64,000 nucleotides of DNA from Mustelus asterias (taxonomy: Eukaryota): the NCBI RefSeq assembly GCF_964213995.1, contig NC_135808.1:24490001-24554000 (forward strand). The letters are read 5' to 3'. Shown piece by piece: positions 7,034-50,269 of this stretch. Position 1 is the stretch's first letter, and every line of letters starts with the position of its first letter. The notes under the pieces were generated by a model. It had not been told where the DNA came from, did not search any database, and saw only the letters and a list, made by a program, of their open reading frames with translations. Both the position numbers and the translations under genes were made by a program.

Positions 7034-7080
7034 TCAGGAACGCGATGAGGAGCTGGATGAGGAATCCCCACCATCAGAAG
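7034..7080 (-). CDS. MHC class I copy A exon 7 (Ser-rich cytoplasmic end and stop)
   Basis: Acceptor tttaacag, TSDGGDSSSSSSRS-TGA, then G|gtatga donor to a probable 3'UTR exon near 6904. Confidence 0.82.
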
Positions 7081-7253: not shown

Positions 7254-10200
7254 TGTTTGATGATCAGCTTACTATTTGTAGGATTGTAGTCGTTCTTCCC
7301 TCTCCCTGTAAAACATGGAATGTTCAGTGAGTGACGAGACTGAGAGAAAATCAGAGACAGAGGCTGGAACTCTCGCTCGCACTGAGCCCCGACAACACAA
7401 TTCTGAAATCCTCACTCTCAGCCTGACCGGGACCCTCACTCCCACCCTGACCCTGGACCCTCACTCTGACCTGAGCCCCTCACAGATATCCTGAACTCCA
7501 TCCGCAATCTGAGACCCTTCCCACAATTCTCAGACACTCTCCCTTTATCTTGAGCCCCTTATCCTCCCTATCCCAACCCTGGGGCTCTTCCACCCACTCT
7601 GTGACCCCCCCCACACCAACCTGAGACCCACAGCCTGAGCCACCCCCACCCTGGAATACTCTCCCACAATCCCTCCCCCCAGTGAGGAGCTGCTATTTTC
7701 CCTCCAATTCCTACCTTTCTTGTTGTAGATGACAACAGCCACAATGATGAGAGCGATGAGCACGAGGACCCCGACCACAATCCCGACAGTAAGAGCAACC
7801 TGGGAGCGAGACTTTGGTTCTGTTAGAGAGAGAGAATCAGAGAGACTGAGTGAATCAGGGAGAGGGAAAAGTGAGAATCAGAGTGAGAGAATGGGAGAGA
7901 GTGGGAGAGAATGAGAGAGAGAGAGAGAGGGCTAGCATCTAAGAGTGAATGAGGGAGTGAATGAGAGATAGAAAAAGGTCAGAGAGTGAGAATGAGAGAG
8001 TGAATCAGGGAGAAAGAAAGAGAAATGTAAGAGTGAGAATGAGAGAGGAAGAAAGAGAAATGAGAGAGTGAATCAGAGGGAGAGAGTGAATCAGGAAACA
8101 CAGGATATACGACACAGAAACCGGCCATTCGACCCATCCAGTTGATCGTGGTGTTAATGTTCTACTTGAGCCTCCTCCCATCTTTTTTTCTCATCTAATT
8201 CGACCATTTCAACTCTATTCCCCTCTCCCTCATTTGCTTGTCTATCCTCCCCTTAAACTATACTGTTCAGTTCAGCCACTCCCTGTGGCAGCGAGCTCCA
8301 CATTCTCATCACTCTTTGGGTGAAGAGGTTTCTCATAAATTCCCCATTGGGTTTCTTGTATTGATGGCCACTGGATATGCTCTTCCCACAAGAGGAACAC
8401 TCTCGATGTGTCCGCTCGATAAAAAACCTTTCATAATTTTAAACTCCTCGATTAAATCAACCCTCAGCCTTCTGTTTTCCCGAGAGCAGAGACCCAGCCA
8501 GTCAATCCTTTCCTGAGATGTCCACCCACTTATTTCTGGAATCATCTCTGTAAATCTTCTCTCCACTCTCTCCCCTGACTCTATATCCTTTGTGTGAAAT
8601 GGTGACCGGAACTGCACACGGTCTTTAAATGTGGTCTAACCAAGGTTTGGCAATAACGTCCCTGCTTTACAATTCTATTCCTCGAGAAATCAAACCTGGT
8701 TTTCGATTGTATTTTGTTTATTGTCTAACCTGTAACTCTATGTTTACTGATTGGTGTATTTGTCCATCAAGATCCCTTTGTTCCTCAACCCTCCCTATTC
8801 ATCGTTAACTGAAAAATACCTCACGTTTATCTGTGCTGAACTTTATTCACCAACTATTTGCTGAAGTTTATTCATGTCCTATTAATTTATTCCAGTTCTC
8901 CTCAAAATCAAATAATTCCCCCAATTTGGTGTTAGCTGCAAATTAAGAAATTGTATTTTTGATTCCAATATCCAAGTTATGGAGTGTAAGTTGTGAATAG
9001 CAGTGATCCCAACACTGATCCTTGTGGAATGATGGAGGAACCCAGCACATCAGTGCAAAAGATAAAGCCGAAGTATTCACAGCAATCTTCAGCCTGAAGT
9101 GCCGAGTGGATGATCCATCTCGGCCTCCTCCAGTGGTCCCCAGCATCTCAGATACCAGTCTCCAGATCATTCGATTCACTTCACGTGATATCAAGAAACG
9201 GTTGGAGGCACTGGATACTGCAAAGGCAATGGGCCCTGATAACATTCCACCAATAGCATTGAAGACTTGTGCTCCACAACTTGCCGACCCCCAAGCCAAG
9301 CTCTTCCAGTACAGTTACAACACTGGCATCTACCCAACAATGTGGAAAATTGCCCAGGTTATGCCCTGTACACAAAAAGCAGGACAAATCCAACCCGGCC
9401 AATTACCGCCCAATCAGTCTACTATCAATCACCAGTAAAGTGATGGAAGGGGTCATCGACAGTGCTATCATGCAGCACCTGCTCAGCGACGCCCAGTTTA
9501 GGTTTTGCCAGGGTCACTCAGCTCCTGACCTCATTGCAGCCTTGGTTCAAACATGGACAAAAGAGCTGAATTCCAGAGGTGAGGTGAGAGTGACAGCCCT
9601 TGACATCCAGGCCAAATTTGACCGAGTGTGGATCAAGGAGCCCTAGCAAAACTGGAATCAGTGGGTATCAAGGGGCAAACTCTCCGCTGGTTGGAGTCAG
9701 ACCTGGTACATAGGAAGATGGTTGTGGTTGTGGAGGGTCAGTCACCTCAGCTCCACGACATCTCTGCAGGAGTCCCTCAGGTAGTGTCCTCGGCCCAATA
9801 ATCTTCAGCTGCTTCATCAATGACCTTCCCTCCATCAATAGGTCGGAAGTGGGGATGTTCGCCGATGATCGCACAATGTTCAGCACCATTCACGATTCCT
9901 CAGATACCGAAGCAGTCCATGTTCAAATGCAGCAAGATCTGGACAATATCCAGGCTTGGGCTGACAAGTGGCAAATAACATTCGTGATGGAATACTCCCC
10001 TCTTGCCTGGATGGGTGCAGCTCCAACAACACTCAAGAAGCTCGACACCATCCAGGACAAAGCAGCCCGCTTGATTGGCACCACATCTATAAATATTCAA
10101 TCTGTCTCCCACCGACGCTCAGTAGCAGCAGTGTGTACTATCTACAAGATGCACTGCAGCAATTCACTGATGATCCTGAGACAGCACCTTCCAAACACAC

Positions 10201-13200
10201 GATCACTTCCATCTAGAAGGACAAGGACAGCAGATAAATGGGAACACCACCACCTGCAAGTTCCCCTCCAAGCCACTCACCATCCTGACTTGCAAATATA
10301 TCACCGTTCCTTCGAGGTCACTGGGTCAAAATACTAGAATTCCCTCCCTAACAGCATTGTCACCACCACCTTCTCAAGGGCAACGAGGCATGGGCAATAA
10401 ATGCTGGTCAGCCAGCGACACCCATGTCCCACGAATGAATTAAAAAAAACACATTTTCCACTTTCTGTCACTCCGAATAACTCCCTTTACTTACACTCTC
10501 TGCTTTCTGTCCAAAAGTCAGTGAGTGATCCATTCTGTCACTCATCCCCTAACTCCACATGCTTTGACCTTGTCAATCAGTCCATCACGAACACCCTTTT
10601 CTATTACATTTGAAAAATTATATGATATTATATCTATTACATTACCATTGTCTATTCCCTCTGTTACATCCTCAATTGTGTGCAGTTCTGGTCACCTGGA
10701 TGTGGAAGCGCTGGAAAGAGTGCAGAGGAGATTTACCAGGATGCTGCCTGGTTTGGAGGGTAGATCTTATGAGGAAAGGTTGAGGGAGCTAGGGCTGTTC
10801 TCTCTGGAGCGGAGGAGGCTGAGGGGAGACTTAATAGAGGTTTATAAAATGATGAAGGGGATAGATAGAGTGAACGTTCAAAGACTATTTCCTCGGGTGG
10901 ATGGAGCTATTACAAGGGGGCATAACTATAGGGTTCGTGGTGGGAGATATAGGAAGGATATCAGAGGTAGGTTCTTTACGCAGAGTGGTTGGGGTGTGGA
11001 ATGGACTGCCTGCAGTGATAATGGAGTCAGACACTTTAGGAACATTTAAGCAGTTATTGGATAGGCATATGGAGCACACCAGGATGATAGGGAGTGGGAT
11101 AGCTTGATCTTGGTTTCAGATAAAGCTCGACACAACATCGTGGGCCAAGGGCCTGTTCTGTGCTGTACTGTTCTATGTTCTAAAAATCCACTTAGTGGAG
11201 TAAAACAAGATTTTCCATTTCAAAATCCATGCTGAATATTCATTGTTATAGGATTTGATTCTAGATTTTCATGAAATGTCTTTAATAGAAGGAATTCCAT
11301 TATTTTTCTGAATATTGATCTTAATCTTACTGACATAAACTCCCAGGATGCACTGGGTCCTGTCCTACTGTAATATTTGATTTATTGTCACATGTATTGG
11401 TGTACAGTGAAAAGTATTGTTTCTTGGAGATACTGGGCCCTGTCTATCCTCTATCCAAGTGGAGAGGATCTCCAAGAAGATCGCGCATATCGACACAAAC
11501 ATCAAGTTTCTACAAACATGCAAGAAAGCAGACAAGATACCGAAAGGACTACGGATCACGAACCCACTCAGGTCAACCTTTAACACGGACTACGCTGAGA
11601 GACTGTGCCATCGCACCTCTCTCACCCTCCTCAAACACCTCATACACCAACTCTACAGCAAACGCCACAGCCTGGAAACCAAGATCGAATCCATAGTCTC
11701 AACTTGCGCTCAGGACGCAGACCAGCTGCGAAACTCTGCCAAGCAGACGAGACAAAGGAACTACACCATCTACATGCACACCAAGAACAGGAAACTTGAG
11801 AAACTCGGCATCACCACCAGCAGCAACCAAGCCTCCCCCGGTACCACAGTAGAAAACAGTACCACTGCAGGAAAGTCCATTGTCAACCCATCGGACTACA
11901 CACTTCAGCCAGATGAAATCGAAGTTCTCAGCCGAGGGCTCAACTTTTGCCCCACTACCAAAATAGACCCCATCAGTCTCGCAGCGGACACAGAGGAATT
12001 CATCAGGCGAATGAGGCTGCGGGAGTTCTTCCACAAACCCCAAGAGGCCAACAGCAAACACAATGAGACAGCTAATGAACCGGAACAGCAGACAGAGAGA
12101 CCCGCAGTGCAACCGAAGAGGAAAGAGTCGAATTGGACTCCTCCGGAAGGCCGCTGCCCTCGACTTGACATGTATGCCCAAGCCATCAGGAGGTGCGTCA
12201 ACACCAAATTCATCAGCCGCACTCACAAGACAGCACCGAACATCACCCAAGCACAACGCAACGCCATCCACGCTCTCAAGACCAACCGCAACATTGTCAT
12301 CAAACCAGCAGACAAAGGAGGGGCCATCATCATACTGAACAGAACGGATTACTGCAAAGAAGTGTACCGACAACTGAACAACGAGGAACACAACAGACAG
12401 TTACCCACAGATCCGACCAAAGAACACACCCGTCAACTCAACACTCTGATCAAAACCTTTGATCCAGACCTTCAGAGCACCCTCCGTGCTCTCATCCCAC
12501 GTACTCCACACGTTGGAGATCTCTACTGCCTCCCAAAAATACACAAGGCAAACACACCCGGCCGTCCCATCGTTTCAGGAAACGGAACCCTGTGCGAGAA
12601 CCTCTCCGGCTATGTCGAGGGCATCTTGAAACCCATTGTACAAAGAACCCCCAGCTTTTGTCGTGACACTATGGACTTCCTACAGAAACTCAACACACAT
12701 GGAGCAGTTGAACCAGGAGCACTCCTCGTCACAATGGATGTCTCGGCACTCTACACCAGCATCCCCCACGATGATGGCATTGCTGCAACGGCCTCAGAAC
12801 TCAATGCCGTCAACTGCCAGTTTCCAGATGCAATTTTACAACTCATCCGCTTCATCCTGGATCACAATATCTTCACCTTCAACAACCAGTTCTTCATCCA
12901 GACACACGGAACAGCCATGGGACAAAATTCGCACCTCAATATGCCAACATCTTCATGCACAGGTTCGAACAAGACTTCTTCACTGCACAGGACATTCAAC
13001 CGATGCTATACACTAGATACATCGATGACATTTTCTTCCTTTGGAGTCATGGTGAGCAATCACTGAAACAACTATATGATGACATCAACAAGTTCCATCC
13101 CACCATCAGACTCACCATGGACTACTCTCCGGAATCGGTTGCATTCTTGGACACACGCATCTCCATTAAGGACGGTCACCTCAGCACCTCACTGTACCGC

Positions 13201-16200
13201 AAGCCCACGGATAACCTCACGATGCTCCACTTCTCCAGCTTCCACCCGAAACACGTAAAAGAAGCCATCCCCTACGGACAAGCCCTCCGAATACACAGGA
13301 TCTGCTCGGACGAGGAGGATCGCAACAGACACCTCCAGACGCTGAAAGATGCCCTCATAAGAACAGGATATGGCGCTCGACTCATCGATCAACAGTTCCG
13401 ACACGCCACAGCAAAAAACCGCACCGACCTCCTCAGAAGACAAACACGGGACACGGTGGACAGAGTACCCTTCGTCGTCCAGTACTTCCCCAGAGCGGAG
13501 AAGCTACGGCATCTCCTCCGGAGCCTTCAACATGTCATTGATGAAGACGAACATCTCGCCAAGGCCATCCCCACACCCCCACTTCTTGCCTTCAAACAAC
13601 CACGCAACCTCAAACAGACCGTTGTCCGCAGCAAACTACCCAGCCTTCAGGAGAACAGTGACCACGTCACCACACAACCCTGCCACAGCAACCTCTGCAA
13701 GACGTGCCGGATGATCAACATGGATGCCATCATCCCACGTGAGAACACCATCTACCAGGTACACGGTACCTACTCTTGCAACTTGGCCAACGTTGTCTAT
13801 CTGATACGCTGCAAGAAAGGATGTCCCGAGGCATGGTACATTGGGGAAACGATGCAGACGCTACGACAACGGATGAATGAACACCGCTCGACAATCACCA
13901 GGCAAGACTGTTCTCTTCCTGTGGGGGAGCACTTCAGCAGTCACGGGCATTCAGCCTTGGATCTTCAGGTAAGCGTTCTCCAAGGCGGCCTTCACGACAC
14001 ACGACAGCGCAGAGTCGCTGAGCAGAAACTGATAGCCAAGTTCCGCACACATGAGGACGGCCTAAACCGGGATGTTGGATTTATGTCACATTATCAGTAA
14101 CCCCCACAGCTTGCCTCCTGGACTTGCAGAATTTCACAAGCTGTTCTGTCTGGAGACAATACACATCTCTTTAACCTGTGTTGAATGCTCCCTCCACCCA
14201 CATTGTCTGTACATTTAAGACCTGGCTGGCTGTAGAGATTTGCATTCTAATCAGTATTCTGTATATTGATTTCTGTGTCTGTGCTCTGTTTGAGAACAGA
14301 TATCTACTCCATCTGACGAAGGAGCTCTGCTCCGAAAGCTTATGGTATTTGCTACCAAATAAACCTGTTGGACTTTAACCTGGTGTTGTGAGACTTCTTA
14401 CTGTGCTTATCCTCTAATATCCCAGGCACACCATGCCCTTCCTCCTGTAACATCCCAGGATACACCAGGCCCTGTCTACCCTCTAATATCCCAGGCACAC
14501 TGGGCCCTACCTCCTGTAATATCCTATGTTACCCTGGGTCATCGCATACAGTAATATCCCAGGATACACCAGGCCCTGTAAGGCTGCAATATCTCAGGAT
14601 ACACTAGGATTTGTCCTTTTATAATATCCCAGGATACACTGCATTCTGTATTACTGCAGTATCCCAGGATACACTCGGTCCTGTCAGGCTGCAATATCCC
14701 ACATACACTGGGCCCCACCATACTGTAATATCCCAGAACACTCCAGGTCCAGATTTACTCTAATGTCCAATGATGCACCAGGCCCTGTGCGACTGTAATA
14801 TCCCATGGTACACTATATCATGTCGTACTGTAATATTCCAGGATACACCAGGCCCTGTTATACTGTTCTATCCCAGGATACTCTGGGCTCTGTCATACTG
14901 TAATCCCAGGATACACTGCGACCCGTGCGACAATAATATCCCAAAATGCACTGGGTCTTGTCGTACAATAATATCCCTGGACACACTGGGCTCTGTCATA
15001 CTCTAGTATCCCAATTAAACCAGGCCCTTGTGGACAGTAACATCCGAGGATACACTTGGCCTTGTCCCTACTGTAACATCCCGACTGTAATGGCCCTGAC
15101 CAACTAAAGGACCTCATGATACACAGCACCCTGTCCCACTGTAATGTCCAATAACACAACGGGTCCTGTACTCCCAGTTATTTCCCAGGATGCACCAGGC
15201 CCTGTCATGCTTTAATATCCCAAGGTGCACCCGGCCTTATCCATCCTGTAATATCCCACAAGACACTGGATCCTGTTGCACTGTAATACAGCAGGATACA
15301 GTGGGGTATGTTTCATGTCAAATCCATGGACACACAATTATTTCCCTCTAAAGGTGGTACCATGATATATCACACATTGAAGGTGAATATTTATTTTCCT
15401 CTCTGTATCCCGGGCCTCAGGCTGTCCTGGGCTGACAGCTCAGCACTGACCCTCACTCCTGTGATCCTGGCCTGAGGCTGGGTCCTCTCTAACAGTGAGA
15501 AACAGTCTTACCGTAAATCACCATCAGTGTCTCCTTCATCCCGCTGTGTTCCACCCGACAGGAATACTCGGCCTGGTCCTCTGGATCAAACTCTACCCAT
15601 TTCCGGATCTGGTAGGTGCTGTCGTGATTGGGTAAAATCCCACTGGACAGAGTCTCATCAATCACCACTCCGTCTCTCCACAGATTCACCTCGATGGCTT
15701 GAGGGTAAAACCCGGTGACGGCACAGGACAGCCGGTTAGAATCACCCAGACGGGTAAAGGACACGACGGGGGCAACTGAGAGAGAAAGAAAGAGGAGTCA
15801 GTACAGGAACCTCGAGATAGAGACTCCCGGCATCACCCCCTTCACCGACTCTCACTCCCCCCTCACTCACCGACTCTCACTCCCCCCTCACTCACCGACT
15901 CTCACTCCCCCCTCACTCACCGACTCTCGCTCCCCGACTCTCACTCCCCCCTCACTCCCCGACTCTCACACCCCCCTCACTCACCGACTCTCACTACCCC
16001 CTCACTCACCGACTCTCACTCCCCCCCCCACTCACCGACTCTCACTCCCCCCTCACTCACCGACTCTCACTCCTCCCTCACTCACCGACTCTCAGTCTCC
16101 CCTCACTCACCGACTCTCACTCCCCTCTCACTCACCGACTCTCACTTCCCCCCTCACTCACCGACTCTCACTCCCCCCTCACTCACCGACTCTCACTCCC

Positions 16201-17697
16201 CCCCTCACTCACCGACTCTCACTCCACCCTCACTCACCGACTCTCACTCGCCCCTCACTCACCGACTCTCACCCTCCCTCACTCACCGACTCTCACTCCC
16301 CCTCTCACTCACCGACTCTCACTCCCCCCTCACTCACCGACTCTCACTCCCCCCTCACTCACCGACTCTCACTCCCCCCTCACTCACCGACTCTCACTCC
16401 CCCCTCACTCACCGACTCTCACTCCCCCCTCACTCACCGACTCTCACTCCCCCCTCACTCACCGACTCTCACTACCCCCCTCACTCACCGACTCTCACTA
16501 CCCCCCTCACTCACCGACTCTCACTACCCCCCTCACTCACCGACTCTCAATTCTCTCTGTCCGTACTCCAGGTATTTTCTCAGCCACTCGATACACTCCA
16601 CCTCCAGGTAATGTTTCAATCGCTGAATGTGTCCAGTCTGCCGGTCGCACCTGTTTTTGATGCTCTCCCCCCAGGGCACTGGGGTCACCCACACCATGTG
16701 CTCCTTGTCCAAACTGAGAACGTCATGTCCGTCCCACCCGTACTGGCTGAATCCACTCGTGGTCCCATCATCCCGCAGGTCACAGCCAGTCATCATCTGG
16801 CAGACATGGACCCCTGTGGATCAGAAACACAAACAGCCAATCAGAGACAGTCCCAATGGGCGATCCCACCTGTACAGCCAATCAGAACGTGTCTCACTGG
16901 GCGATCTCATCCCACCAGCCAATCAACATCAACTACACCCCCCCCTCCCCCCCCACTCCGCTCACACACAGCCAATCAGAGCCAGCTCCCTGGACACAAT
17001 CCCTCCACACATTCACAGCCAATCACATTTCCTGTCACATCTCCAATCGCAGCCAATCAACCTCTGGCTCCCAGTCCCTAATCCACTCTGGGTTTCTCCT
17101 CATTCCCACCTGGATCCCCGGGTGCTGGGAGAGTGAGCACTCACCTACTGTCTGGTTGGTGTGGGACATGTAGAGCGGAATATCAGCTTTCAAATACATC
17201 TCCTGCTCCTCTGTGAAGATCTTCTTCCGCTCCCAGGCTGCCGGACCCTCGCTCTCCACCATCCACTGCTCCCGGGGGATCAGCTCCCTCCGATCGCTGT
17301 CGTACATCACAAACTGGACACCGTCCACATAAACGACAGCCACAAACTCCGGGAAATCCGGGATCAAAGTCATTCCCGTGAAGAAATACCGCAGAGAGTG
17401 AGAGCCTGAAATACAGAGAGAGAGAATTCAGGAAATACACCCTAAAAACACCAACACCCTCACACACACACACAGAGAGATCAGGGCATGAACCCCAAAA
17501 CACTGATTCCAAACTGAGAGCAAGACCTCCACCCAGCCTGGCATTGCCCCTCTCACACCCCATCACTCACTGACCCAGGGTTAATGCCCCAGTACCCAGC
17601 CTGGCATTGCCCCTCTCACACCCCATCACTCACCTGCAGACACCTCTCCACACAGAAGGACCAGCTCTATCAGTCCAATCATTGCTGCTTCCCTCAT
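7034..17697 (-). CDS. MHC class I alpha chain, non-classical-like, copy A. Spliced CDS join(complement 17634-17682 [or 17697], 17145-17405, 16541-16813, 15512-15775, 7715-7819, 7273-7305, 7034-7080)
   Basis: Leader MIGLIELVLLCGEVSA; a1 GSHSLRYFFTGM...NQT; a2 with the C..C pair and YLEVECIEWLRKYL; a3 C1-set Ig domain (LSCAVTGFYP...YSCRVEHSG); TM; Tyr/Ser-rich tail. All junctions are GT-AG phase 1 and the spliced frame is open (1032 nt). Confidence 0.93.
7273..7305 (-). CDS. MHC class I copy A exon 6 (cytoplasmic, 33 nt)
   Basis: Acceptor ttttacag, GRGKNDYNPTN, donor gtaagc. It has the size and Tyr typical of class I exon 6. Confidence 0.85.
7715..7819 (-). CDS. MHC class I copy A exon 5 (connecting peptide and transmembrane)
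   Basis: Acceptor ctaacag after a long CT tract; EPKSRSQVALTVGIVVGVLVLIALIIVAVVIYNKK; donor gtagga. Confidence 0.9.
8100..9020 (-). mobile_element. Old CR1 LINE 3' fragment in intron 4 (paralog ~40640-41560)
   Basis: ERVERRFTEMIPEI...LGLCSRENRRLRVDLIEEFKIMKG. Confidence 0.75.
9025..10449 (+). mobile_element. Non-LTR retrotransposon (CR1/L2-group LINE) 3' portion, frameshifted and internally deleted, copy A
   Basis: KAMGPDNIP, NYRPISLLS, ALDIQAKFDRVW, GVPQGS, MFADD motifs; ends aatgaattaaaaaaa. Confidence 0.85.
10676..11182 (+). mobile_element. CR1 LINE 3' end (paralog 43218-43724)
   Basis: LERVQRRFTRMLPGL...LGLFSLERRRLRGDLIEVYK...TRGH C-terminus and a ctatgttcta tail. Confidence 0.9.
11454..14407 (+). 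mobile_element. Penelope-like retroelement (RT + GIY-YIG endonuclease), 5'-truncated with one frameshift, in MHC intron 4, copy A
   Basis: ORFs 11417-13066 and 12955-14100 carry KPADKGG, LPKIHK-GRPIVS, MDVSALYTSI, GTAMG|KFAPQYANIFM (frameshift ~12922), YTRYIDDIF, and VYLIRC..C...YIGET...QRMNEH (GIY-YIG). 3' terminal repeat 14101-14407. Flanked by the direct repeat tatcctcta (11445-11453 and 14408-14416). Confidence 0.95.
14309..14345 (+). ncRNA. Minimal type I hammerhead ribozyme in the Penelope 3' terminal repeat, copy A
   Basis: CCAT-CTGACGA-A-GGAGC-tct-GCTCC-GAAA-GCTT-ATGG: stem I ccat/atgg, core CUGANGA and GAAA, stem II ggagc/gctcc, palindromic AAGCTT in place of stem III. Confidence 0.88.
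14417..15330. repeat. Degenerate ~35-bp tandem repeat; begins at ~11335-11453 and is split by Penelope (paralog 46960-47870)
   Basis: Recurrent taatatcccaggatacac(t/c)(g/a)ggccctgt. Confidence 0.9.
15512..15775 (-). CDS. MHC class I copy A exon 4 (alpha-3, C1-set Ig domain)
   Basis: Acceptor ctctcag, 264 nt, VAPVVSF...LSCAVTGFYPQAIEVNLW...LPNHDSTYQ...YSCRVEHSG, donor gtaaga. Confidence 0.96.
15841..16548. repeat. 25-bp tandem repeat filling MHC intron 3, ~28 units, copy A
   Basis: Unit ctcactcaccgactctcactccccc; it overlaps the last bases of exon 3. Confidence 0.97.
16541..16813 (-). CDS. MHC class I copy A exon 3 (alpha-2 domain)
   Basis: Acceptor ccacag, 273 nt, GVHVCQMMTGCDLRDDG...WDGHD...YLEVECIEWLRKYLEYGQRELRV, donor gtgagt. 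Confidence 0.96.
17145..17405 (-). CDS. MHC class I copy A exon 2 (alpha-1 domain)
   Basis: Acceptor tatttcag, 261 nt, GSHSLRYFFTGMTLIPDFPEFVAVVYVDGVQFVMYDSD...MSHTNQTV, donor gtgagt. Confidence 0.96.
17634..17697 (-). CDS. MHC class I copy A exon 1 (leader); ATG at 17682, in-frame upstream ATG at 17697
   Basis: (MREAA)MIGLIELVLLCGEVSA-G followed by the donor gtgagt, downstream of the X-Y promoter module. Confidence 0.85.
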
Positions 17698-17818: not shown

Positions 17819-17862
17819 CCAATCAGAATAAAGAGATTCAGTGAGTCATCAGTTTCCAGCAG
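17819..17862 (-). promoter_or_regulatory. MHC X1-X2-Y promoter module, copy A
   Basis: Minus strand CTGCTGGAAACTGA-TGACTCA-(15 bp)-CTGATTGG, ~140-180 bp upstream of the ATG. A second CCAAT is at 17793-17800. Confidence 0.8.
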
Positions 17863-25700: not shown

Positions 25701-26025
25701 GTACTGATACTGTCCCTCTCAGTGTGTGAGCTGTGTCCTGTACCTGATGGTGTCCCTCTCAGCGTGTGAGCTGTGTCCTGTACCTGATACTGTCCCTCTC
25801 AGTCTGTGAGCTGTGTCCTGTACTGATACTGTCCCTCTCAGTGTGTGAGCTGTGTCCTGTACTGATACAGTCCCTCTCAGTGTGTGAGCTGTGTCCTGTA
25901 CCTGATGGTGTCCCTCTCAGCGTGTGAGCTGTGTCCTGTACCTGATGGTGTCCCTCTCAGTGTGTGAGCTGTGTCCTGTACCTGATACTGTCCCTCTCAG
26001 TGTATGAGCTCTGTGCTGTACTTGA
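22790..26025. repeat. 39-bp tandem satellite, ~83 units, copy A
   Basis: Unit ctcagtgtgtgagctgtgtcctgtactgatactgtccct. Confidence 0.98.
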
Positions 26026-39408: not shown

Positions 39409-42400
39409 TCAGGAACGCGTGGAGGAGCTGGATGAGGAATCCCCACCATCAGAAGCTGTTAAAGGAAGGAGAGACATTAAAAACTGTTCATTTTCACAGA
39501 GACAGAGACTGTGGATTTGAGAATGAGAGAGACAAAGAGAGACACAGAGAAAGAAAGAGGTTCTCACACACATACTGACGGTGACACACAGAAATACAGA
39601 CACACACACACACACACACACGGTGTTTGATGATCAGCTTACTATTTGTAGGATTGTAGTCGTTCTTCCCTCTCCCTGTAAAACAAGGAATGTTCAGTGA
39701 GTGACGAGACTGAGAGAAAATCAGAGACAGAGGCTGGAACCCTCGCTCGCACTGAGCCCCGACAACACAATTCTGAAATCCTCACTCTCAGCCTGACCGG
39801 GACCCTCACTCCCACCCTGATCCTGGACCCTCACTCCCGTCCTGTCCCTCGACCCTCACTCCGACCCTGACCCTGGACCCTCACTCCCATCCTGTCCCTA
39901 GATCCTCACACCCACCCTGACCTGGATCCTCACTCCCATCCTGTCCCTAGACCCTCACTCCCACCCTGATCCTGAACTCCCACCCTGACCCTGGACCCTC
40001 ACTCCCCCCTGACCCTGGACCATCACTCCCACCCTGACCCTGGACCCTCACTCTGACCTGAGCCCCTCACAGATATCCTGAACTCCATCCGCAATCTGAG
40101 ACCCTTCCCACAATTCACAGACACTCTCCCTTTATCTTGAGCCCCTTATCCTCCCTATCCCAACCCTGGGGCTCTTCCATCCACTCTGTGACCCCCCCCC
40201 CACACCAACCTGAGACCCACAGCCTGAGCCACCCCCACCCTGGAATACTCTCCCACAATCCCTCCCCCGAGTGAGGAGCTGCTCTTTTCCCTCCAATTCC
40301 TACCTTTCTTGTTGTAGATGACAACAGCCACAATGATGAGAGCGATGAGCACGAGGACCCCGACCACAATCCCGACAGTAACAGCAACCTGGGAGCGAGA
40401 CTTTGGTTCTGTTAGAGAGAGAGAATCAGAGAGACTGAGTGAATCAGGGAGAGGGAAAAGTGAGAATCAGAGTGAGAGAATGGGAGAGAGTGGGAGAGAA
40501 TGAGAGAGAGAGAGAGAGGGCTAGCATCTAAGAGTGAATGAGGGAGTGAATGAGAGATAGAAAAAGGTCAGAGAGTGAGAATGAGAGAGGAAGAAAGAGA
40601 AATGAGAGAGTGAATCAGAGGGAGAGAGTGAATCAGGAAACACAGGATATACGACACAGAAACCGGCCATTCGGCCCATCCAGTTGATAGTGGTGTTAAT
40701 GTTCTACTTGAGCCTCCTCCCATCTTTTTTTCTCATCTAATTCGACCATTTTAACTCTATTCCCCTCTCCCTCATTTGCTTGTCTATCCTCCCCTTAAAC
40801 TATACTGTTCAGTTCAGCCACTCCCTGTGGCAGCGAGCTCCACATTCTCATCACTCTTTGGGTGAAGAGGTTTCTCATGAATTCCCCATTGGGTTTCTTG
40901 TATTGATGGCCACTGGATATGCTCTTCCCACAAGAGGAACACTCTCGATGTGTCCGCTCGATAAAAAACCTTTCATAATTTTAAACTCCTCGATTAAATC
41001 AACCCTCAGCCTTCTGTTTTCCCGAGAGCAGAGACCCAGCCAGTCAATCCTTTCCTGAGATGTCCACCCACTTATTTCTGGAATCATCTCTGTAACTCTT
41101 CTCTCCACTCTCTCCCCTGACTCTATATCCTTTGTGTGAAATGGTGACCGGAACTGCACACGGTCTTTAAATGTGGTCTAACCAAGGTTTGGCAATAACG
41201 TCCCTGCTTTACAATTCTATTCCTCGAGAAGTAAAACCTGGTTTTCGATTGTATTTTGTTTATTGTCTAACCTGTAACTCTATGTTTACTGATTGGTGTA
41301 TTTGTCCATCAAGATCCCTTTGTTCCTCAACCCTCCCTATTCATCGTTAACTGAAAAATACCTCACGTTTATCTGTGCTGAACTTTATTCACCAACTATT
41401 TGTTCAAGTTTATTCATGTCCTATTAATTTATTCCAGTTCTCCTCAAAATCAAATAATTCCCCCAATTTAGTGTTATCTGCAAATTAAGAAATGGTATTT
41501 TTGATTCCAATATCCAAGTTATGGAGTGTAAGTTGTGAATAGCAGTGATCCCAACACTGATCCTTGTGGAATGATGGAGGAACCCAGCACATCAGTGCAA
41601 AAGATAAAGCCGAAGTATTCGCAGCAACCTCCAGCCTGAAGTGCCGAGTGGATGATCCATCTCGGCCTCCTCCAGTGGTCCCCAGCATCTCAGATACCAG
41701 TCTCCTGATAATTCGATTCACTTCACGTGATATCAAGAAACGGTTGGAGGCACTGGATACTGCAAAGGCAATGGGCCCTGATAACATTCCACCAATAGCA
41801 TTGAAGACTTGTGCTCCAGAACTTGCCGACCCCCAAGCCAAGCTCTTCCAGTACAGTTACAACACTGGCATCTACGCAACAATGTGGAAAATTGCCCAGG
41901 TTATGCCCTGTACACAAAAAGCAGGACAAATCCAACCCGGCCAATTACCGCCCAATCAGTCTACTATCGATCACCAGTAAAGTGATGGAAGGGGTCATCG
42001 ACAGTGCTATCATGCAGCACCTGCTCAGCGACGCGCAGTTTAGGTTTTGCCAGGGTCACTCAGCTCCTGACCTCATTGCAGCCTTGGTTCAAACATGGAC
42101 AAAAGAGCTGAATTCCAGAGGTGAGGTGAGAGTGACAGCCCTTGACATCCAGGCCAAATTTGACCGAGTGTGGATCAAGGAGCCCTAGCAAAACTGGAAT
42201 CAGTGGGTATCAAGGGGCAAACTCTCCGCTGGTTGGAGTCAGACCTGGTACATAGGAAGATGGTTGTGGTTGTGGAGGGTCAGTCACCTCAGCTCCACGA
42301 CATCTCTGCAGGAGTCCCTCAGGTAGTGTCCTCGGCCCAATAATCTTCAGCTGCTTCATCAATGACCTTCCCTCCATCAATAGGTCGGAAGTGGGGATGT

Positions 42401-45400
42401 TCGCCGATGATCGCACAATGTTCAGCACCATTCACGACTCCTCAGATACTGAAGCAGTCCATGTTCAAATGCAGCAAGATCTGGACAATATCCAGGCTTG
42501 GGCTGACAAGTGGCAAATAACATTCGTGATGGAATACTCCCCTCTTGCCTGGATGGGTGCAGCTCCAACAACACTCAAGAAGCTCGAAACCATCCAGGAC
42601 AAAGCAGCCCGCTTGATTGGCACCACATCTATAAATATTCAATCTGTCTCCCACCGACGCTCAGTAGCAGCAGTGTGTACTATCTACAAGATGCACTGCA
42701 GCAATTCACTGATGATCCTGAGACAGCACCTTCCAAACACACAATCACTTCCATCTAGAAGGACAAGGACAGCAGATAAATGGGAAGATCACCACCTGCA
42801 AGTTCCCCTCCAAGCCACTCACCATCCTGACTTGCAAATATATCACCGTTCCTTCGAGGTCACTGGGTCAAAATACTAGAATTCCCTCCCTAACAGCATT
42901 GTCACCACCACCTTCTCAAGGGCAACGAGGCATGGGCAATAAATGCTGGTCAGCCAGCGACACCCATGTCCCACGAATGAATTAAAAAAAACACATTTTC
43001 CACTTTCTGTCACTCCGAATAACTCCCTTTACTCACACTCTCTGCTTTCTGTCCAAAAGTCAGTGAGTGATCCATTCTGTCACTCATCCCCTAACTCCAC
43101 ATGCTTTGACCTTGTCAATCAGTCCATCACGAACACCCTTTTCTATTACATTTGAAAAATTATATGATATTATATCTATTACATTACCATTGTCTATTCC
43201 CTCTGTTACATCCTCAATTGTGTGCAGTTCTGGTCACCTGGATGTGGAAGCGCTGGAAAGAGTGCAGAGGAGATTTACCAGGATACTGCCTGGTTTGGAG
43301 GGTAGATCTTATGAGGAAAGGTTGAGGGAGCTAGGGCTGTTCTCTCTGGAGCGGAGGAGGCTGAGGGGAGACTTAATAGAGGTTTATAAAATGATGAAGG
43401 GGATAGATAGAGTGAACGTTCAAAGACTATTTCCTCGGGTGGATGGAGCTATTACAAGGGGGCATAACTATAGGGTTCGTGGTGGGAGATATAGGAAGGA
43501 TATCAGAGGTAGGTTCTTTACGCAGAGTGGTTGGGGTGTGGAATGGACTGCCTGCAGTGATAATGGAGTCAGACACTTTAGGAACATTTAAGCAGTTATT
43601 GGATAGGCACATGGAGCACACCAGGATGATAGGGAGTGGGATAGCTTGATCTTGGTTTCAGATAAAGCTCGACACAACATCGTGGGCCGAAGGGCCTGTT
43701 CTGTGCTGTACTGTTCTATGTTCTAAAAATCCACTTAGTGGAGTAAAACAAGATTTTCCATTTCAAAATCCATGCTGAATATTCATTGTTATAGGATTTG
43801 ATTCTAGATTTTCATGAAATGTCTTTAATAGAAGGAATTCCATTATTTTTCTGAATATTGATCTTAATCTTACTGACATAAACTCCCAGGATGCACTGGG
43901 TCCTGTCCTACTGTAATATTTGATTTATTGTCACATGTATTGGTATACAGTGAAAAGTATTGTTTCTTGGAGATACTGGGCCCTGTCTATCCTCTATCCA
44001 AGTGGAGAGGATCTCCAAGAAGATCGCGCATATCGACACAAACATCAAGTTTCTACAAACATGCAAGAAAGCAGACAAGATACTGAAAGGACAACGGATC
44101 ACGAACCCACTCAGGTCAACCTTTAACACGGACTACGCTGAGAGACTGTGCCATCGCACCTCTCTCACCCTCCTCAAACACCTCATACACCAACTCTACA
44201 GCAAACGCCGCAGCCTGGAAACCAAGATCGAATCCATAGTCTCAACTTGCGCTCAGGACGCAGACCAGCTGCGAAACTCTGCCAAGCAGACGAGACAAAG
44301 GAACTACACCATCTACATGCACACCAAGAACAGGAAACTTGAGAAACCCGGCATCACCACCAGCAGCAACCAAGCCTCCCCCGGTACCACAGTAGAAAAC
44401 AGTACCACTGCAGGAAAGTCCATTGTCAACCCATCGGACTACACACTTCAGCCAGATGAAATCGAAGTTCTCAGCCGAGGGCTCAACTTTTGCCCCACTA
44501 CCAAAATAGACCCCATCAGTCTCGCAGCGGACACAGAGGAATTCATCAGGCGAATGAGGCTGCGGGAGTTCTTCCACAAACCCCAAGAGGCCAACAGCAA
44601 ACACAATGAGACAGCTAATGAACCGGAACAGCAGACAGAGAGACCCGCAGTGCAACCGAAGAGGAAAGAGTCGAATTGGACTCCTCCGGAAGGCCGCTGC
44701 CCTCGACTTGACATGTATGCCCAAGCCATCAGGAGGTGCGTCAACACCAAATTCATCAGCCGCACTCACAAGACAGCACCGAACATCACCCAAGCACAAC
44801 GCAACGCCATCCACGCTCTCAAGACCAACCGCAACATTGTCATCAAACCAGCAGACAAAGGAGGGGCCATCGTCATACTGAACAGAACGGATTACTGCAA
44901 AGAAGTGTACCGACAACTGAACAACGAGGAACACTACAGACAGTTACCCACAGATCCGACCAAAGAACACACCCGTCAACTCAACACTCTGATCAAAACC
45001 TTTGATCCAGACCTTCAGAGCACCCTCCGTGCTCTCATCCCACGTACTCCACACGTTGGAGATCTCTACTGCCTCCCAAAAATACACAAGGCAAACACAC
45101 CCGGCCGTCCCATCGTTTCAGGAAACGGAACCCTGTGCGAGAACCTCTCCGGCTATGTCGAGGGCATCTTGAAACCCATTGTACAAAGAACCCCCAGCTT
45201 TTGTCGTGACACTACGGACTTCCTACAGAAACTCAACACACATGGAGCAGTTGAACCAGGAGCACTCCTCGTCACAATGGATGTCTCGGCACTCTACACC
45301 AGCATCCCCCACGATGATGGCATTGCTGCAACGGCCTCAGAACTCAATGCCGTCAACTGCCAGTTTCCAGATGCAATTTTACAACTCATCCGCTTCATCC

Positions 45401-48400
45401 TGGATCACAATATCTTCACCTTCAACAACCAGTTCTTCATCCAGACACACGGAACAGCCATGGGACAAAATTCGCACCTCAATATGCCAACATCTTCATG
45501 CACAGGTTCGAACAAGACTTCTTCACTGCACAGGACATTCAACCGATGCTATACACTAGATACATCGATGACATTTTCTTCCTTTGGAGTCATGGTGAGC
45601 AATCACTGAAACAACTATATGATGACATCAACAAGTTCCATCCCACCATCAGACTCACCATGGACTACTCTCCGGAATCGGTTGCATTCTTGGACACACG
45701 CATCTCCATTAAGGACGGTCACCTCAGCACCTCACTGTACCGCAAGCCCACGGATAACCTCACGATGCTCCACTTCTCCAGCTTCCACCCGAAACACGTA
45801 AAAGAAGCCATCCCCTACGGACAAGCCCTCCGAATACACAGGATCTGCTCGGACGAGGAGGATCGCAACAGACACCTCCAGACGCTGAAAGATGCCCTCA
45901 TAAGAACAGGATATGGCGCTCGACTCATCGATCAACAGTTCCGATGCGCCACAGCAAAAAACCGCACCGACCTCCTCAGAAGACAAACACGGGACACGGT
46001 GGACAGAGTACCCTTCGTCGTCCAGTACTTCCCCAGAGCGGAGAAGCTACGGCATCTCCTCCGGAGCCTTCAACATGTCATTGATGAAGACGAACATCTC
46101 GCCAAGGCCATCCCCACACCCCCACTTCTTGCCTTCAAACAACCACGCAACCTCAAACAGACCGTTGTCCGCAGCAAACTACCCAGCCTTCAGGAGAACA
46201 GTGACCACGTCACCACACAACCCTGCCACAGCAACCTCTGCAAGACGTGCCGGATGATCAACATGGATGCCATCATCCCACGTGAGAACACCATCTACCA
46301 GGTACACGGTACCTACTCTTGCAACTTGGCCAACGTTGTCTATCTGATACGCTGCAAGAAAGGATGTCCCGAGGCATGGTACATTGGGGAAACGATGCAG
46401 ACGCTACGACAACGGATGAATGAACACCGCTCGACAATCACCAGGCAAGACTGTTCTCTTCCTGTGGGGGAGCACTTCAGCAGTCACGGGCATTCAGCCT
46501 TGGATCTTCAGGTAAGCGTTCTCCAAGGCGGCCTTCACGACACACGACAGCGCAGAGTCGCTGAGCAGAAACTGATAGCCAAGTTCCGCACACATGAGGA
46601 CGGCCTAAACCGGGATGTTGGATTTATGTCACATTATCAGTAACCCCCACAGCTTGCCTCCTGGACTTGCAGAATTTCACAAGCTGTTCTGTCTGGAGAC
46701 AATACACATCTCTTTAACCTGTGTTGAATGCTCCCTCCACCCACATTGTCTGTACATTTAAGACCTGGCTGGCTGTAGAGATTTGCATTCTAATCAGTAT
46801 TCTGTAAATTGATTTCTGTGTCTGTGCTCTGTTTGAGAACAGATATCCACTCCATCTGACGAAGGAGCTCTGCTCCGAAAGCTTATGGTATTTGCTACCA
46901 AATAAACCTGTTGGACTTTAACCTGGTGTTGTGAGACTTCTTACTGTGCTTATCCTCTAAAATCCCAGGCACACCATGCCCTTCCTCCTGTAACATCCCA
47001 GGATACACCAGGCCCTGTCTACCCTCTAATATCCCAGGCACACTGGGCCCTACCTCCTGTAATATCCTATGTTACCCTGGGTCATCGCATACAGTAATAT
47101 CCCAGGATACACCAGGCCCTGTAAGGCTGCAATATCTCAGGATACACTAGGATTTGTCCTTTTATAATATCCCAGGATACACTGCATTCTGTATTACTGC
47201 AGTATCCCAGGATACACGAGGTCCTGTCAGGCTGCAATATCCCAGATATACTGGGCCCCACCATACTGTAATATCCCAGAACACCCCAGGTCCAGATTTA
47301 CTCTAATGTCCAATGATGCACCAGGCCCTGTGCGACTGTAATATCCCATGGTACACTATATCATGTCGTACTGTAATATTCCAGGATACACCAGGCCCTG
47401 TTATACTGTTCTATCCCAGGATACTCTGGGCTCTGTCATACTGTAATCCCAGGATACACTGCGACCCGTGCGACAATAATATCCCAAAATGCACTGGGTC
47501 TTGTCGTACAATAATATCCCTGGACACACTGGGCTAGTATACTCTAGTATCCCAATTAAACCAGGCCCTTGTGGACAGTAACATCCGAGGATACACTTGG
47601 CCTTGTCCCTACTGTAACATCCCGACTGTAATGGCCCTGACCAACTAAAGGACCTCATGATACACAGCACCCTGTCCCACTGTAATGTCCAATAACACAA
47701 CGGGTCCTGTACTCCCAGTTATTTCCCAGGATGCACCAGGCCCTGTCATGCTTTAATATCCCAAGGTACACCCGGCCTTATCCATCCTGTAATATCCCAG
47801 AAGACACTGGATCCAGTTGCACTATAATACGGCAGGATACAGTGGGGTATGTTTCATGTCAAATCCATGGACACACAATTATTTCCCTCTAAAGGTGGTA
47901 CCATGATATATCACACATTGAAGGTGAATATTTATTTTCCTCTCTGTATCCCGGGCCTCAGGCTGTCCTGGGCTGACAGCTCAGCACTGACCCTCACTCC
48001 TGTGATCCTGGCCTGAGGCTGGGTCCTCTCTAACAGTGAGAAACAGTCTTACCGTAAATCACCATCAGTGTCTCCTTCATCCCGCTGTGTTCCACCCGAC
48101 AGGAATACTCGGCCTGGTCCTCTGGATCAAACTCTACCCATTTCCGGATCTGGTAGGTGCTGTCGTGATTGGGTAAAATCCCACTGGACAGAGTCTCATC
48201 AATCACCACTCCGTCTCTCCACAGATTCACCTCGATGGCTTGAGGGTAAAACCCGGTGACGGCACAGGACAGCCGGTTAGAATCACCCAGACGGGTAAAG
48301 GACACGACGGGGGCAACTGAGAGAGAAAGAAAAAGGAGTCAGTACAGGAACGTCGAGATAGAGACTCCCGGCATCACCCCCTTCACCGACTCTCACTCCC

Positions 48401-50269
48401 CCCTAACTCACCGACTCTCACTCCCCCCTCACTCACCGACTCTCACTCCCCCCTCACTCACCGACTCTCGCTCCCCGACTCTCACTCCCCCCTCACTCCC
48501 CGACTCTCACTCCCCCCTCACTCACCGACTCTCACTACCCCCTCACTCACCGACTCTCACTCCCCCCCCCCACTCACCGACTCTCACTCCCCCCTCACTC
48601 ACCGACTCTCACTCCTCCCTCACTCACCGACTCTCAGTCTCCCCTCACTCACCGACTCTCACTCCCCTCTCACTCACCGACTCTCACTTCCCCCCTCACT
48701 CACCGACTCTCATTCCCCCCTCACTCACCGACTCTCACTCCCCCCCTCACTCACCGACTCTCACTCCACCCTCACTCACCGACTCTCACTCGCCCCTCAC
48801 TCACCGACTCTCACCCCCCCTCACTCACTGACTCTCACTCCCCCTCTCACTCACCGACTCTCACTCCCCCCTCACTTACCGACTCTCACTCCCCCCTCAC
48901 TCACCGACTCTCACTCCCCCCTCACTCACCGACTCTCACTCCCCCCTCACTCACCGACTCTCACTCCCCCCTCACTCACCGACTCTCACTCCCCCCTCAC
49001 TCACCGACTCTCACTACCCCCCTCACTCACCGACTCTCACTACCCCCCTCACTCACCGACTCTCACTACCCCCCTCACTCACCGACTCTCACTACCCCCC
49101 TCACTCACCGACTCTCAATTCTCTCTGTCCGTACTCCAGGTATTTTCTCAGCCACTCGATACACTCCACCTCCAGGTAATGTTTCAATCGCTGAATGTGT
49201 CCAGTCTGCCGGTCGCACCTGTTTTTGATGCTCTCCCCCCAGGGCACTGGGGTCACCCACACCATGTGCTCCTTGTCCAAACTGAGAACGTCATGTCCGT
49301 CCCACCCGTACTGGCTGAATCCACTCGTGGTCCCATCATCCCGCAGGTCACAGCCAGTCATCATCTGGCAGACATGGACCCCTGTGGATCAGAAACACAA
49401 ACAGCCAATCAGAGACAGTCCCAATGGGCGATCCCACCTGTACAGCCAATCAGAACGTGTCTCACTGGGCGATCTCATCCCACCAGCCAATCAACATCAA
49501 CTACACCCCCCCCCCTCCCCCCCCACTCCGCTCACACACAGCCAATCAGAGCCAGCTCCCTGGACACAATCCCTCCACACATTCACAGCCAATCACATTT
49601 CCTGTCACATCTCCAATCGCAGCCAATCAACCTCTGGCTCCCAGTCCCTAATCCACTCTGGGTTTCTCCTCATTCCCACCTGGATCCCCGGGTGCTGGGA
49701 GAGTGAGCACTCACCTACTGTCTGGTTGGTGTGGGACATGTAGAGCGGAATATCAGCTTTCAAATACATCTCCTGCTCCTCTGTGAAGATCTTCTTCCGC
49801 TCCCAGGCTGCCGGACCCTCGCTCTCCACCATCCACTGCTCCCGGGGGATCAGCTCCCTCCGATCGCTGTCGTACATCACAAACTGGACACCGTCCACAT
49901 AAACGACAGCCACAAACTCCGGGAAATCCGGGATCAAAGTCATTCCCGTGAAGAAATACCGCAGAGAGTGAGAGCCTGAAATACAGAGAGAGAGAATTCA
50001 GGAAATACACCCTAAAAACACCAACACCCTCACACACACACACACAGAGAGATCAGGGCATGAACCCCAAAACACTGATTCCAAACTGAGAGCAAGACCT
50101 CCACCCAGCCTGGCATTGCCCCTCTCACACCCCATCACTCACTGACCCAGGGTTAATGCCCCAGTACCCAGCCTGGCATTGCCCCTCTCACACCCCATCA
50201 CTCACCTGCAGACACCTCTCCACACAGAAGGACCAGCTCTATCAGTCCAATCATTGCTGCTTCCCTCAT
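39409..50269 (-). CDS. MHC class I alpha chain, non-classical-like, copy B. Spliced CDS join(complement 50206-50254 [or 50269], 49715-49975, 49109-49381, 48053-48316, 40304-40408, 39643-39675, 39409-39455)
   Basis: Same exon structure and splice sites as copy A. Leader and a1-a3 are identical in protein; it differs by L>V near the TM start and S>T in the tail. Confidence 0.93.
39790..40060. repeat. ~24-bp VNTR in MHC intron 5, expanded in copy B (only 2-3 units at ~7420-7480 in copy A)
   Basis: Unit ccctgaccctggaccctcactccca; copy B has ~220 bp extra. Confidence 0.85.
40304..40408 (-). CDS. MHC class I copy B exon 5 (transmembrane)
   Basis: EPKSRSQVAVTVGIVVGVLVLIALIIVAVVIYNKK with AG/GT borders. 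Confidence 0.9.
41567..42991 (+). mobile_element. Non-LTR retrotransposon 3' portion, copy B
   Basis: Paralog of 9025-10449. Confidence 0.85.
43997..46950 (+). mobile_element. Penelope-like retroelement, copy B
   Basis: ORFs 43960-45609 and 45498-46643, same frameshift and same tatcctcta flanks (43988-43996 and 46951-46959). Confidence 0.95.
46852..46888 (+). ncRNA. Minimal type I hammerhead ribozyme, copy B
   Basis: Identical to 14309-14345. Confidence 0.88.
48053..48316 (-). CDS. MHC class I copy B exon 4 (alpha-3)
   Basis: Same translation as 15512-15775. Confidence 0.96.
48383..49116. repeat. 25-bp tandem repeat filling MHC intron 3, ~29 units, copy B
   Basis: Same unit, about one extra copy. 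Confidence 0.97.
49109..49381 (-). CDS. MHC class I copy B exon 3 (alpha-2)
   Basis: Same translation as 16541-16813. Confidence 0.96.
49715..49975 (-). CDS. MHC class I copy B exon 2 (alpha-1)
   Basis: Same translation as 17145-17405. Confidence 0.96.

Follow-up and report, generated by a model that had tools for sequence, protein, structure and literature searches.

A C95/C147 subclade within the multicopy UBA class I cluster of Mustelus asterias

Described class I systems and the present gene

Among the nonclassical class I lineages of sharks, UBA is an expanded family derived from the classical UAA (excerpts of PMC12562908), and its many copies form a cluster that has c4 and rxrb as flanking genes and is separate from both the class Ia region and the other class Ib cluster (excerpts of PMC10751288). 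No UBA ligand is reported in the literature searched, which was available in excerpt. Classical molecules conserve a set of groove residues formed by Y7, Y59, R84, T143, K146, W147, Y159, and Y171 (excerpts of PMC4364491). In the window (the whole stretch of 64,000 nucleotides that was analysed), the initial annotation had described an intact class I gene whose groove was thought to be remodelled, with loss of the peptide anchors and with two extra cysteines, C95 and C147. This gene is almost certainly a member of the multicopy, nonclassical UBA lineage. It shares with shark UBA its clade, a multicopy cluster with C4-like and RXR-like flanks, the loss of Y59, T143, and the alpha3 DG, and the presence of K63; it differs in the combination of C95, C147, S114, and V123 and, at the level of its own subfamily, in H84, Y81, and V26. 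With the classical UAA, represented by the structure 6LUP, it has in common the fold, 55-58% identity per domain, the beta2m contacts, the N86 sequon, and Y7, Y159, and Y171, but it belongs to a separate clade and occurs in many near-identical copies, whereas UAA is one polymorphic locus.

Extra cysteines in or near the groove are known from other vertebrates. HLA-G is a nonclassical class I molecule that retains peptide binding. It carries Cys147, as does the shark gene (excerpts of PMC11276036 and PMC8586502), but the origins are unrelated and the shark clade has no C42-type partner, because alpha1 is devoid of Cys in the 10 clade loci having an alpha1. The duck molecule Anpl-UAA*01 resembles the shark gene in having two extra Cys in the portion of the groove that alpha2 contributes; however, the duck molecule is classical and its pair links two floor strands lying side by side in the C pocket, whereas in the shark one Cys lies on the floor and the other on the helix (excerpts of PMC5487541). 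The duck 'Cys95' does not correspond to HLA position 95, because in the duck molecule the floor of the F pocket is represented by residue 93. Teleost P, S, and some U lineages likewise possess lineage-restricted extra groove Cys without an explained role, but these sit in alpha1 (C36/C67, C6-9, C48) and in unrelated lineages, whereas the shark pair sits in alpha2 (excerpts of PMC4364491).

Gene structure and placement in UBA

The minus-strand gene is formed by seven exons (17697-7034), with an open frame of 348 amino acids and GT-AG ends at all introns (Table 1). The outer limits given by the initial annotation, 16541 and 17405, coincide exactly with the ends of the alpha2 and alpha1 exons, both bounded by GT-AG introns in phase 1, and the frame stays open past alpha2 through alpha3, a transmembrane (TM) exon, and two cytoplasmic exons to a stop codon; the intact spliced frame that it claimed is therefore upheld. 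The first ATG is preceded, at a distance of some 120-150 nt, by an X2/Y-box-like, promoter-like module, recognised by what is presumably the consensus for such elements (X2, 15 nt, Y). With up to two mismatches allowed, 0.2 matches are found per shuffled window, and the same module is present at 28 of the 70 class I loci analysed. Contigs from three other organisms (X1-X3), whose status as RNA is a guess, carry the leader-alpha1 and alpha2-alpha3 joints of Table 1 with intron-type ends, so relatives appear to splice at identical sites; sequence set X18 covers introns and none of the exon joints. In codon 147, the third base given by the rows listed for these other-organism contigs is non-Cys at full depth in X2 and X3, and in 792 of 909 in X1.

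Two features had been overlooked in the earlier description, namely a second copy of the gene, identical in alpha1-alpha3, and the family of 55 exons that surrounds both. The second tandem copy lies 32.6 kb from the first and differs from it in one TM and one tail residue. It agrees with RefSeq model P0003 (NCBI label Mustelus asterias), to which alpha1-alpha3 of the studied gene are also identical, and in which Pfam recognises MHC_I and C1-set domains.

Table 1. Features of the studied gene and its second copy, in window coordinates.
Feature	Positions	Strand	Remarks
X2-box / 15 nt / Y-box promoter-like module	17819..17848	-	exact match to the consensus pattern assumed here
Exon 1, leader peptide	17634..17697	-	related-organism contigs join 17404 to 17633
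Exon 2, alpha1	17145..17405	-	Y7 kept; A59, K63, Y81, H84, V26; NQT sequon
Exon 3, alpha2	16541..16813	-	C101/C164, C95, C147, Y116, V123, I143, R146
Codon of C95 (alpha2 exon)	16802-16800	-	extra Cys
Codon of C147 (alpha2 exon)	16649-16647	-	extra Cys
25-bp minisatellite	15842..16549	.	fills the alpha2-alpha3 intron; strand unassigned
Exon 4, alpha3 C1-set domain	15512..15775	-	joint 15775-16541 in related-organism contigs
Exon 5, connecting peptide and transmembrane helix	7715..7819	-	
Exon 6, cytoplasmic	7273..7305	-	Tyr-containing motif
Exon 7, Ser-rich cytoplasmic tail	7034..7080	-	includes the stop codon
Second tandem copy	39420..50269	-	low end approximate; alpha1-alpha3 exons with 0 nucleotide differences

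Residue numbering is consistent with that of 6LUP (nurse shark UAA) in phmmer alignments and with the alpha1 alignment of HLA-A2, UAA, and UBA in the supplement of PMC10751288, and every residue and substitution listed in the initial annotation proved right when checked against 6LUP and HLA-A2 numbering. The gene retains Y7, Y159, Y171, W167, NQT at 86, H93, Q96, D119, G120, D122, the canonical C101 and C164, and the alpha3 Cys pair; the changes are Y59A, R84H, V at 123, T143I, K146R, W147C, C95, G26V, and DG>DS in alpha3. The classical anchor set is thus kept at three of eight positions and changed at five.

Membership of UBA was judged from trees that exclude frameshifted and partial exons. 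The gene groups with the nurse shark sequence AAC60347 in the alpha1-2 tree (78 rows, quick search; SH-aLRT 97), in the alpha3 tree (74 rows; support 85), and in the alpha1-3 tree (27 rows; support 100/99). AAC60347 is labelled nurse shark UBA in the supplement of PMC10751288, and the horn shark sequence AAC60348 clusters with it. In alpha3, identity is 81-86% to UBA sequences (81% to nurse shark UBA) and 55% to UAA. A clade uniting the query with 6LUP and with the UAA-like locus of the same genome (L051) is rejected (AU p 1.2e-60), which excludes classical UAA and bears out the description of the gene as nonclassical. The further suggestion that it represents a separate new nonclassical lineage is ruled out by the three trees and the AU test, which place it in the described UBA. 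As regards the other shark lineages, a UCA, UDA, UEA, or UGA type was rejected on the basis of the ten own-genome loci L061-L070, which have at most 38% alpha2 identity and fall outside the UAA+UBA group; some of these resemble UDA, UGA, and UCA references as judged by eye, the published references themselves being absent from the trees. Membership of the CD1-like UFA is unlikely because the UBA placement is strong, in trees that are without an identified UFA sequence. The W category consists of class II-like two-domain chains, and was rejected for a gene with alpha1, alpha2, and alpha3 exons and a TM segment.

The genomic position is consistent with this placement. Matches to the A2M/complement family are found at 20.24 and 21.01 Mb, on one side of the class I cluster at 21.6-24.75 Mb, and a match to the RXR family is found at 26.06 Mb on the other side; these flanking matches are weak, with E values from 4e-7 to 9e-4, and permit assignment to a family but no further. 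Judged by them, the cluster, lying between C4-like and RXR-like genes, appears to occupy the published position of UBA.

The UBA cluster and its cysteine-bearing exons

When the same genome was searched with alpha2, 79 of the 92 candidates were matches, all of them located on contig C8, and 57 of these 79 rows represent 55 alpha2 exons spread over about 3 Mb of the cluster (two frameshifted exons gave two rows each). The comparison covered every one of the 55 cluster exons and, of the 22 rows outside the cluster, 15; the other seven are weak matches near 32.3-32.8 Mb. Many cluster loci repeat in blocks of about 410 kb, and premature stops and frameshifts are common. Exon 4 (alpha3) is almost invariant throughout the cluster: alpha3 synonymous distances are 0.02-0.07 where alpha2 distances reach 0.5, and this comparison of sequences indicates that alpha3 has been homogenised while alpha1 and alpha2 are diverse and have been exchanged between loci by recombination. 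As an example of such exchange, the alpha1 of the studied gene is 94% identical to that of locus L059, the alpha2 of which has Y95 and W147.

Against this family background, most of the altered anchors are not peculiar to the studied gene. Nurse shark UBA already has F59, K63, L123, I143, R146, F159, and DR in alpha3. Among 47 distinct non-Mustelus UBA-like alpha2 sequences (a set from which 26 proteins were removed by hand as non-UBA) T143 occurs in none and W147 in 35, and Y59 is absent from all UBA-clade rows compared. The losses of Y59 and T143 and the change of the alpha3 DG are therefore UBA-wide, and family members differ from one another at K146 and residue 123; this pattern was derived in the present analysis rather than taken from the original descriptions, and the alignments and supplements of the lineage papers may already detail it. 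Because Y59 and T143 are missing across UBA, the 'lost anchors' are for the most part the normal state of the family, and DG>DS in alpha3, being family-wide, loses its value as a sign of decay. The gene thus falls in a described lineage that already carries most of these substitutions, the C95/C147 pair not being among them. On the other hand, H84, Y81, and V26 are recent traits of the subfamily of the studied gene, V26 being present at only 3 loci.

C95 and C147 are found together in 11 of the 55 cluster alpha2 exons, distributed over three subfamilies and always encoded by TGC, so that they are not private to one copy. Neither was found alone in the remaining cluster exons (39 full-length and five more examined; position 95 is unreadable in one frameshifted exon). 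The Cys-bearing exons are monophyletic (support 100/98), and the co-occurrence counts as a single event because the 11 exons form one clade. Conservation in other sharks and rays does not extend to C95, which is present in 0 of the 47 distinct UBA-like alpha2 sequences, while C147 is present in one of them, a catshark UBA that has Y95; a search for short fragments added three proteins, none with C95. Because the matches included no other triakid or carcharhinid protein, only loose limits can be set on the age of the clade. Alpha1-alpha3 are open at 8 of the 11 Cys loci; two have stops, and one is without an alpha1 within the 3.3 kb examined. Each Cys codon is one base away from a Tyr or Trp codon. 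Retention of the pair was considered as a sign of selection and discarded: 19 of 90 positions vary inside the clade, and two given sites would stay fixed with probability 0.62. The literature search, which lay outside the original UBA description and the main lineage papers, found no shark class I with C95/C147 and no Mustelus class I, and the excerpts of PMC6523485 and PMC2483932 contain nothing on shark UBA. The UBA family itself is known; the C95/C147 subclade with its putatively hollowed pocket is a variant without an account in the literature searched.

A candidate hollowed pocket and competing explanations

Simple parsimony against the nearest seven exons assigns seven nucleotide changes to the stem of the Cys clade, two silent and five altering amino acids: Y95C, L97I/M, N114S, F123V, and W147C. 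All five residues face the groove in its C-terminal half, and an enlarged C-terminal pocket is suggested because four of the five changes are to smaller residues. Given that, in the family at large, a share of 0.336 of the changes falls at 19 groove sites, five groove changes out of five have P = 0.004, or about 0.02 by hand arithmetic if Q150, which is also clade-specific, was a sixth stem change outside the site sets; these sets of groove and pocket sites, as assumed here, were drawn up after the changes had been seen. The side-chain volumes summed over ten pocket sites, with residue volumes likewise as assumed here, are 1537, 1541, and 1595 for the three Cys subfamilies and 1592-1806 for the other 16 pocket types, the close relatives L018 and the sister L014 having 1716-1766. 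Subfamilies A and B are the two smallest of the 19 types and C is the fourth smallest, about equal to the non-Cys type L033 (1592). Some of the space gained may, in the studied copy, be taken up again by Y73 and Y81 of the alpha1 helix. The claim of a remodelled groove can accordingly be retained for the subclade, with its five stem changes, but not for most of the anchor losses, which are UBA-wide. Within the Cys clade alpha2 dN/dS is 0.34-0.39, a purifying signal that is weak (Fisher p 0.024 and 0.097, from approximate site counts with no transition correction), and in alpha1 dN is near or above dS in most pairs.

The preferred reading, held with slightly more than even confidence, is that of a UBA pocket variant in which the E/F region is hollowed and the cysteines serve as small buried residues; that the cavity was selected is given about an even chance. 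Most anchor losses are old UBA traits that preceded the Cys subclade, after which one alpha2 lineage gained Y95C, L97I/M, N114S, F123V, and W147C and spread to 11 loci. The predicted protein would be a surface class Ib molecule associated with beta2m. The N-terminal end of its groove (Y7, Y159, W167, Y171, and a partly kept A pocket) could still hold a ligand, whereas the C-terminus of a peptide would not be clamped in the classical manner. The loss of three aromatic side chains would leave a larger, greasy E/F cavity suited to a bulky hydrophobic group, such as the side chain of an overhanging peptide, a lipopeptide, or a small hydrophobic ligand, which would be displayed to a restricted T-cell or NK-type receptor; the most likely role of C95 and C147 would be that of small buried residues, with no bond between the two. 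A cluster of about 55 copies with at least 19 C-terminal pocket types, a near-constant alpha3, and swapped alpha1 and alpha2 would offer a panel for shark class Ib ligands, and residue swaps would be easy, since only five or six fixed residue differences separate the Cys subclade from its sister exons.

A possible, though rather unlikely, alternative is drift in a redundant birth-and-death cluster, by which neutral pocket changes in one alpha2 exon were multiplied by segmental duplication and no special ligand need exist. Positions 95 and 147 take nine residue pairs among 50 exons, the Cys codons are a single base from Tyr and Trp and would both be retained by chance with the probability given above, and the frequent stops and frameshifts, G26V at three loci, and the recurring blocks of about 410 kb all agree with such a history. 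Drift does less well with the concentration of stem amino-acid changes in the groove (five of five or six), with an alpha2 dN/dS of about 0.35, and with beta2m contacts and canonical Cys that remain intact; relaxed selection, which the initial annotation had offered as an explanation, is still a live rival despite the alpha2 dN/dS of the subclade.

It is doubtful that the cysteines themselves define the function, either through a sealing C95-C147 disulfide helped by F123V or as thiols that hold a ligand covalently, in a class I molecule presenting independently of peptide or presenting no peptide. In the AlphaFold model (mean pLDDT 71.6, groove blocks 67-92), which overlays 6LUP with Z 23.3 and 2.3 A over 176 residues as an ordinary class I platform, DSSP assigns C95, Y116, and V123 to alpha2 strands 1, 2, and 3, respectively, and C147 to the helix that comes after strand 4. 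Many MR1 rows tie with 6LUP in the fold overlay, a tie without functional meaning. In class I geometry as assumed here, residue 95 is covered by the end of the alpha1 helix, and some 12-13 A, with Y116 in between, separate it from residue 147; a disulfide spans at most about 7 A. By this geometry, C95 and C147 are most likely too far apart to bond.

A C95-C147 intrachain disulfide that draws the alpha2-1 helix down to the floor and closes the groove at its C-terminal end, with F123V giving room, is on these grounds improbable. The two Cys originated on a single short branch, each of the 11 exons has both, neither stands alone in the other cluster exons examined, and F123V removes bulk from between them; the co-occurrence, however, is one evolutionary event, and the bond would have to run from strand 1, past Y116, to a helix that lies over strands 3 and 4. 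That the model overlays 6LUP without gross collapse is weak evidence in the same direction. A proven extra groove disulfide, earlier judged geometrically unfavourable, does exist in duck Anpl-UAA*01, but that pair connects neighbouring strands (excerpts of PMC5487541), and C147 occurs without C95 in catshark UBA and is also the extra Cys of HLA-G in the literature excerpts cited above. If the disulfide were true, the gene would show in nature what has been engineered in F-pocket-stabilised class I, Y84C/A139C (excerpts of PMC7066147, which with excerpts of PMC8236899 also supplied the background on pockets); if untrue, the cysteines would reflect routine diversification inside a known family.

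Even less probable is the function of one or both cysteines as free reactive thiols, through HLA-G-like heavy-chain dimers at C147 or the covalent capture of a ligand or metal. The C147 of HLA-G takes part in reported Cys42-Cys147 dimers (excerpts of PMC11276036 and PMC8586502), and C147 has an independent origin in catshark UBA, but in the shark clade both Cys replace groove-facing or buried aromatics, and they give no sign of special conservation. It is highly improbable that the gene is a silent young pseudogene or that the window copies are an assembly duplication: no transcript of the studied copy was found among the four sequence sets compared, out of 21 (X1-X3 being the other-organism contigs), and the copies have identical alpha1-alpha3 exons and 0 mismatches across 27-30 kb, but the 3' end of the duplicated unit shows 2-3% divergence and the gene body about 0.5%, the open reading frame, splice sites, and promoter-like module are intact, and the Cys pair is common to three diverged subfamilies.

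Copy number and exon exchange in the UBA cluster

In the search of the species' own genome with alpha2, about 55 UBA alpha2 exons were found on contig G000:C8 between 21.6 and 24.75 Mb, and at least 19 types of C-terminal pocket are represented in this cluster. Identical exon sets recur at a spacing of about 410 kb (22.60, 23.01 and 23.43 Mb) and the same sets appear once more at 24.63 Mb, as would be produced either by recent segmental duplication or by haplotypes left uncollapsed in the assembly. Across the cluster loci (L001–L059) the alpha3 exons are near-identical, whereas those of alpha1 and alpha2 are highly varied and have undergone recombination, a pattern that argues for concerted evolution accompanied by exon exchange.

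Altered grooves and unusual exon arrangements among UBA genes

Another UBA subclade (L023 and L032–L036) has lost Y7, Y159 and Y171 besides the C-terminal anchors, and its predicted groove is more extreme than that of the gene in the window. In a separate UBA subclade (L037–L039 and L044–L046) there is a single extra cysteine, located in the alpha1 helix, and alpha3 is frameshifted in L037–L039 and L044. At the loci L040–L042 (e.g. G000:C8:24560146), the alpha2 exons are accompanied by neither an alpha1 nor an alpha3 match in the 4 kb examined; an alpha2 exon of this type is spliced ahead of the window gene (17697–7034) in the RefSeq model P0001, which is probably a gene-model fusion. In a contig of a related organism (X1), the leader is joined directly to alpha2, with alpha1 skipped (window 16812–17633), and this joint could reflect alternative splicing at a UBA locus.

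Class I loci outside the UBA type

By alpha3, two loci on G000:C8, L051 (about 42.40 Mb) and L052 (about 41.59 Mb), are the ones that cluster with UAA of the nurse shark, the classical shark class I. Both are atypical: L051 has E59/W63, and L052 has a frameshift in alpha1. No clean classical class I gene was found among the own-genome loci examined, possibly owing to an assembly error or a missed locus. At about 3.66 Mb, L068 is a class Ib gene of the same type as those at 32–33 Mb and stands alone, with about 18 Mb separating it from the next class I match along the contig.

Repeats and possible mobile-element frames

The Penelope-like frames sit within the alpha3–TM intron of the window gene, and the tandem array recurs in the second duplicated unit, near 55.3–58.8 kb.

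Repeats and possible mobile-element frames around the class I gene (window positions)
Feature	Position	Strand	Remarks
Two long overlapping frames, Penelope-like	11411–14100	+	Weak reverse transcriptase and GIY-YIG matches, below Pfam cut-offs
39-bp tandem array, about 83 copies	22790–26022		Upstream of the window gene
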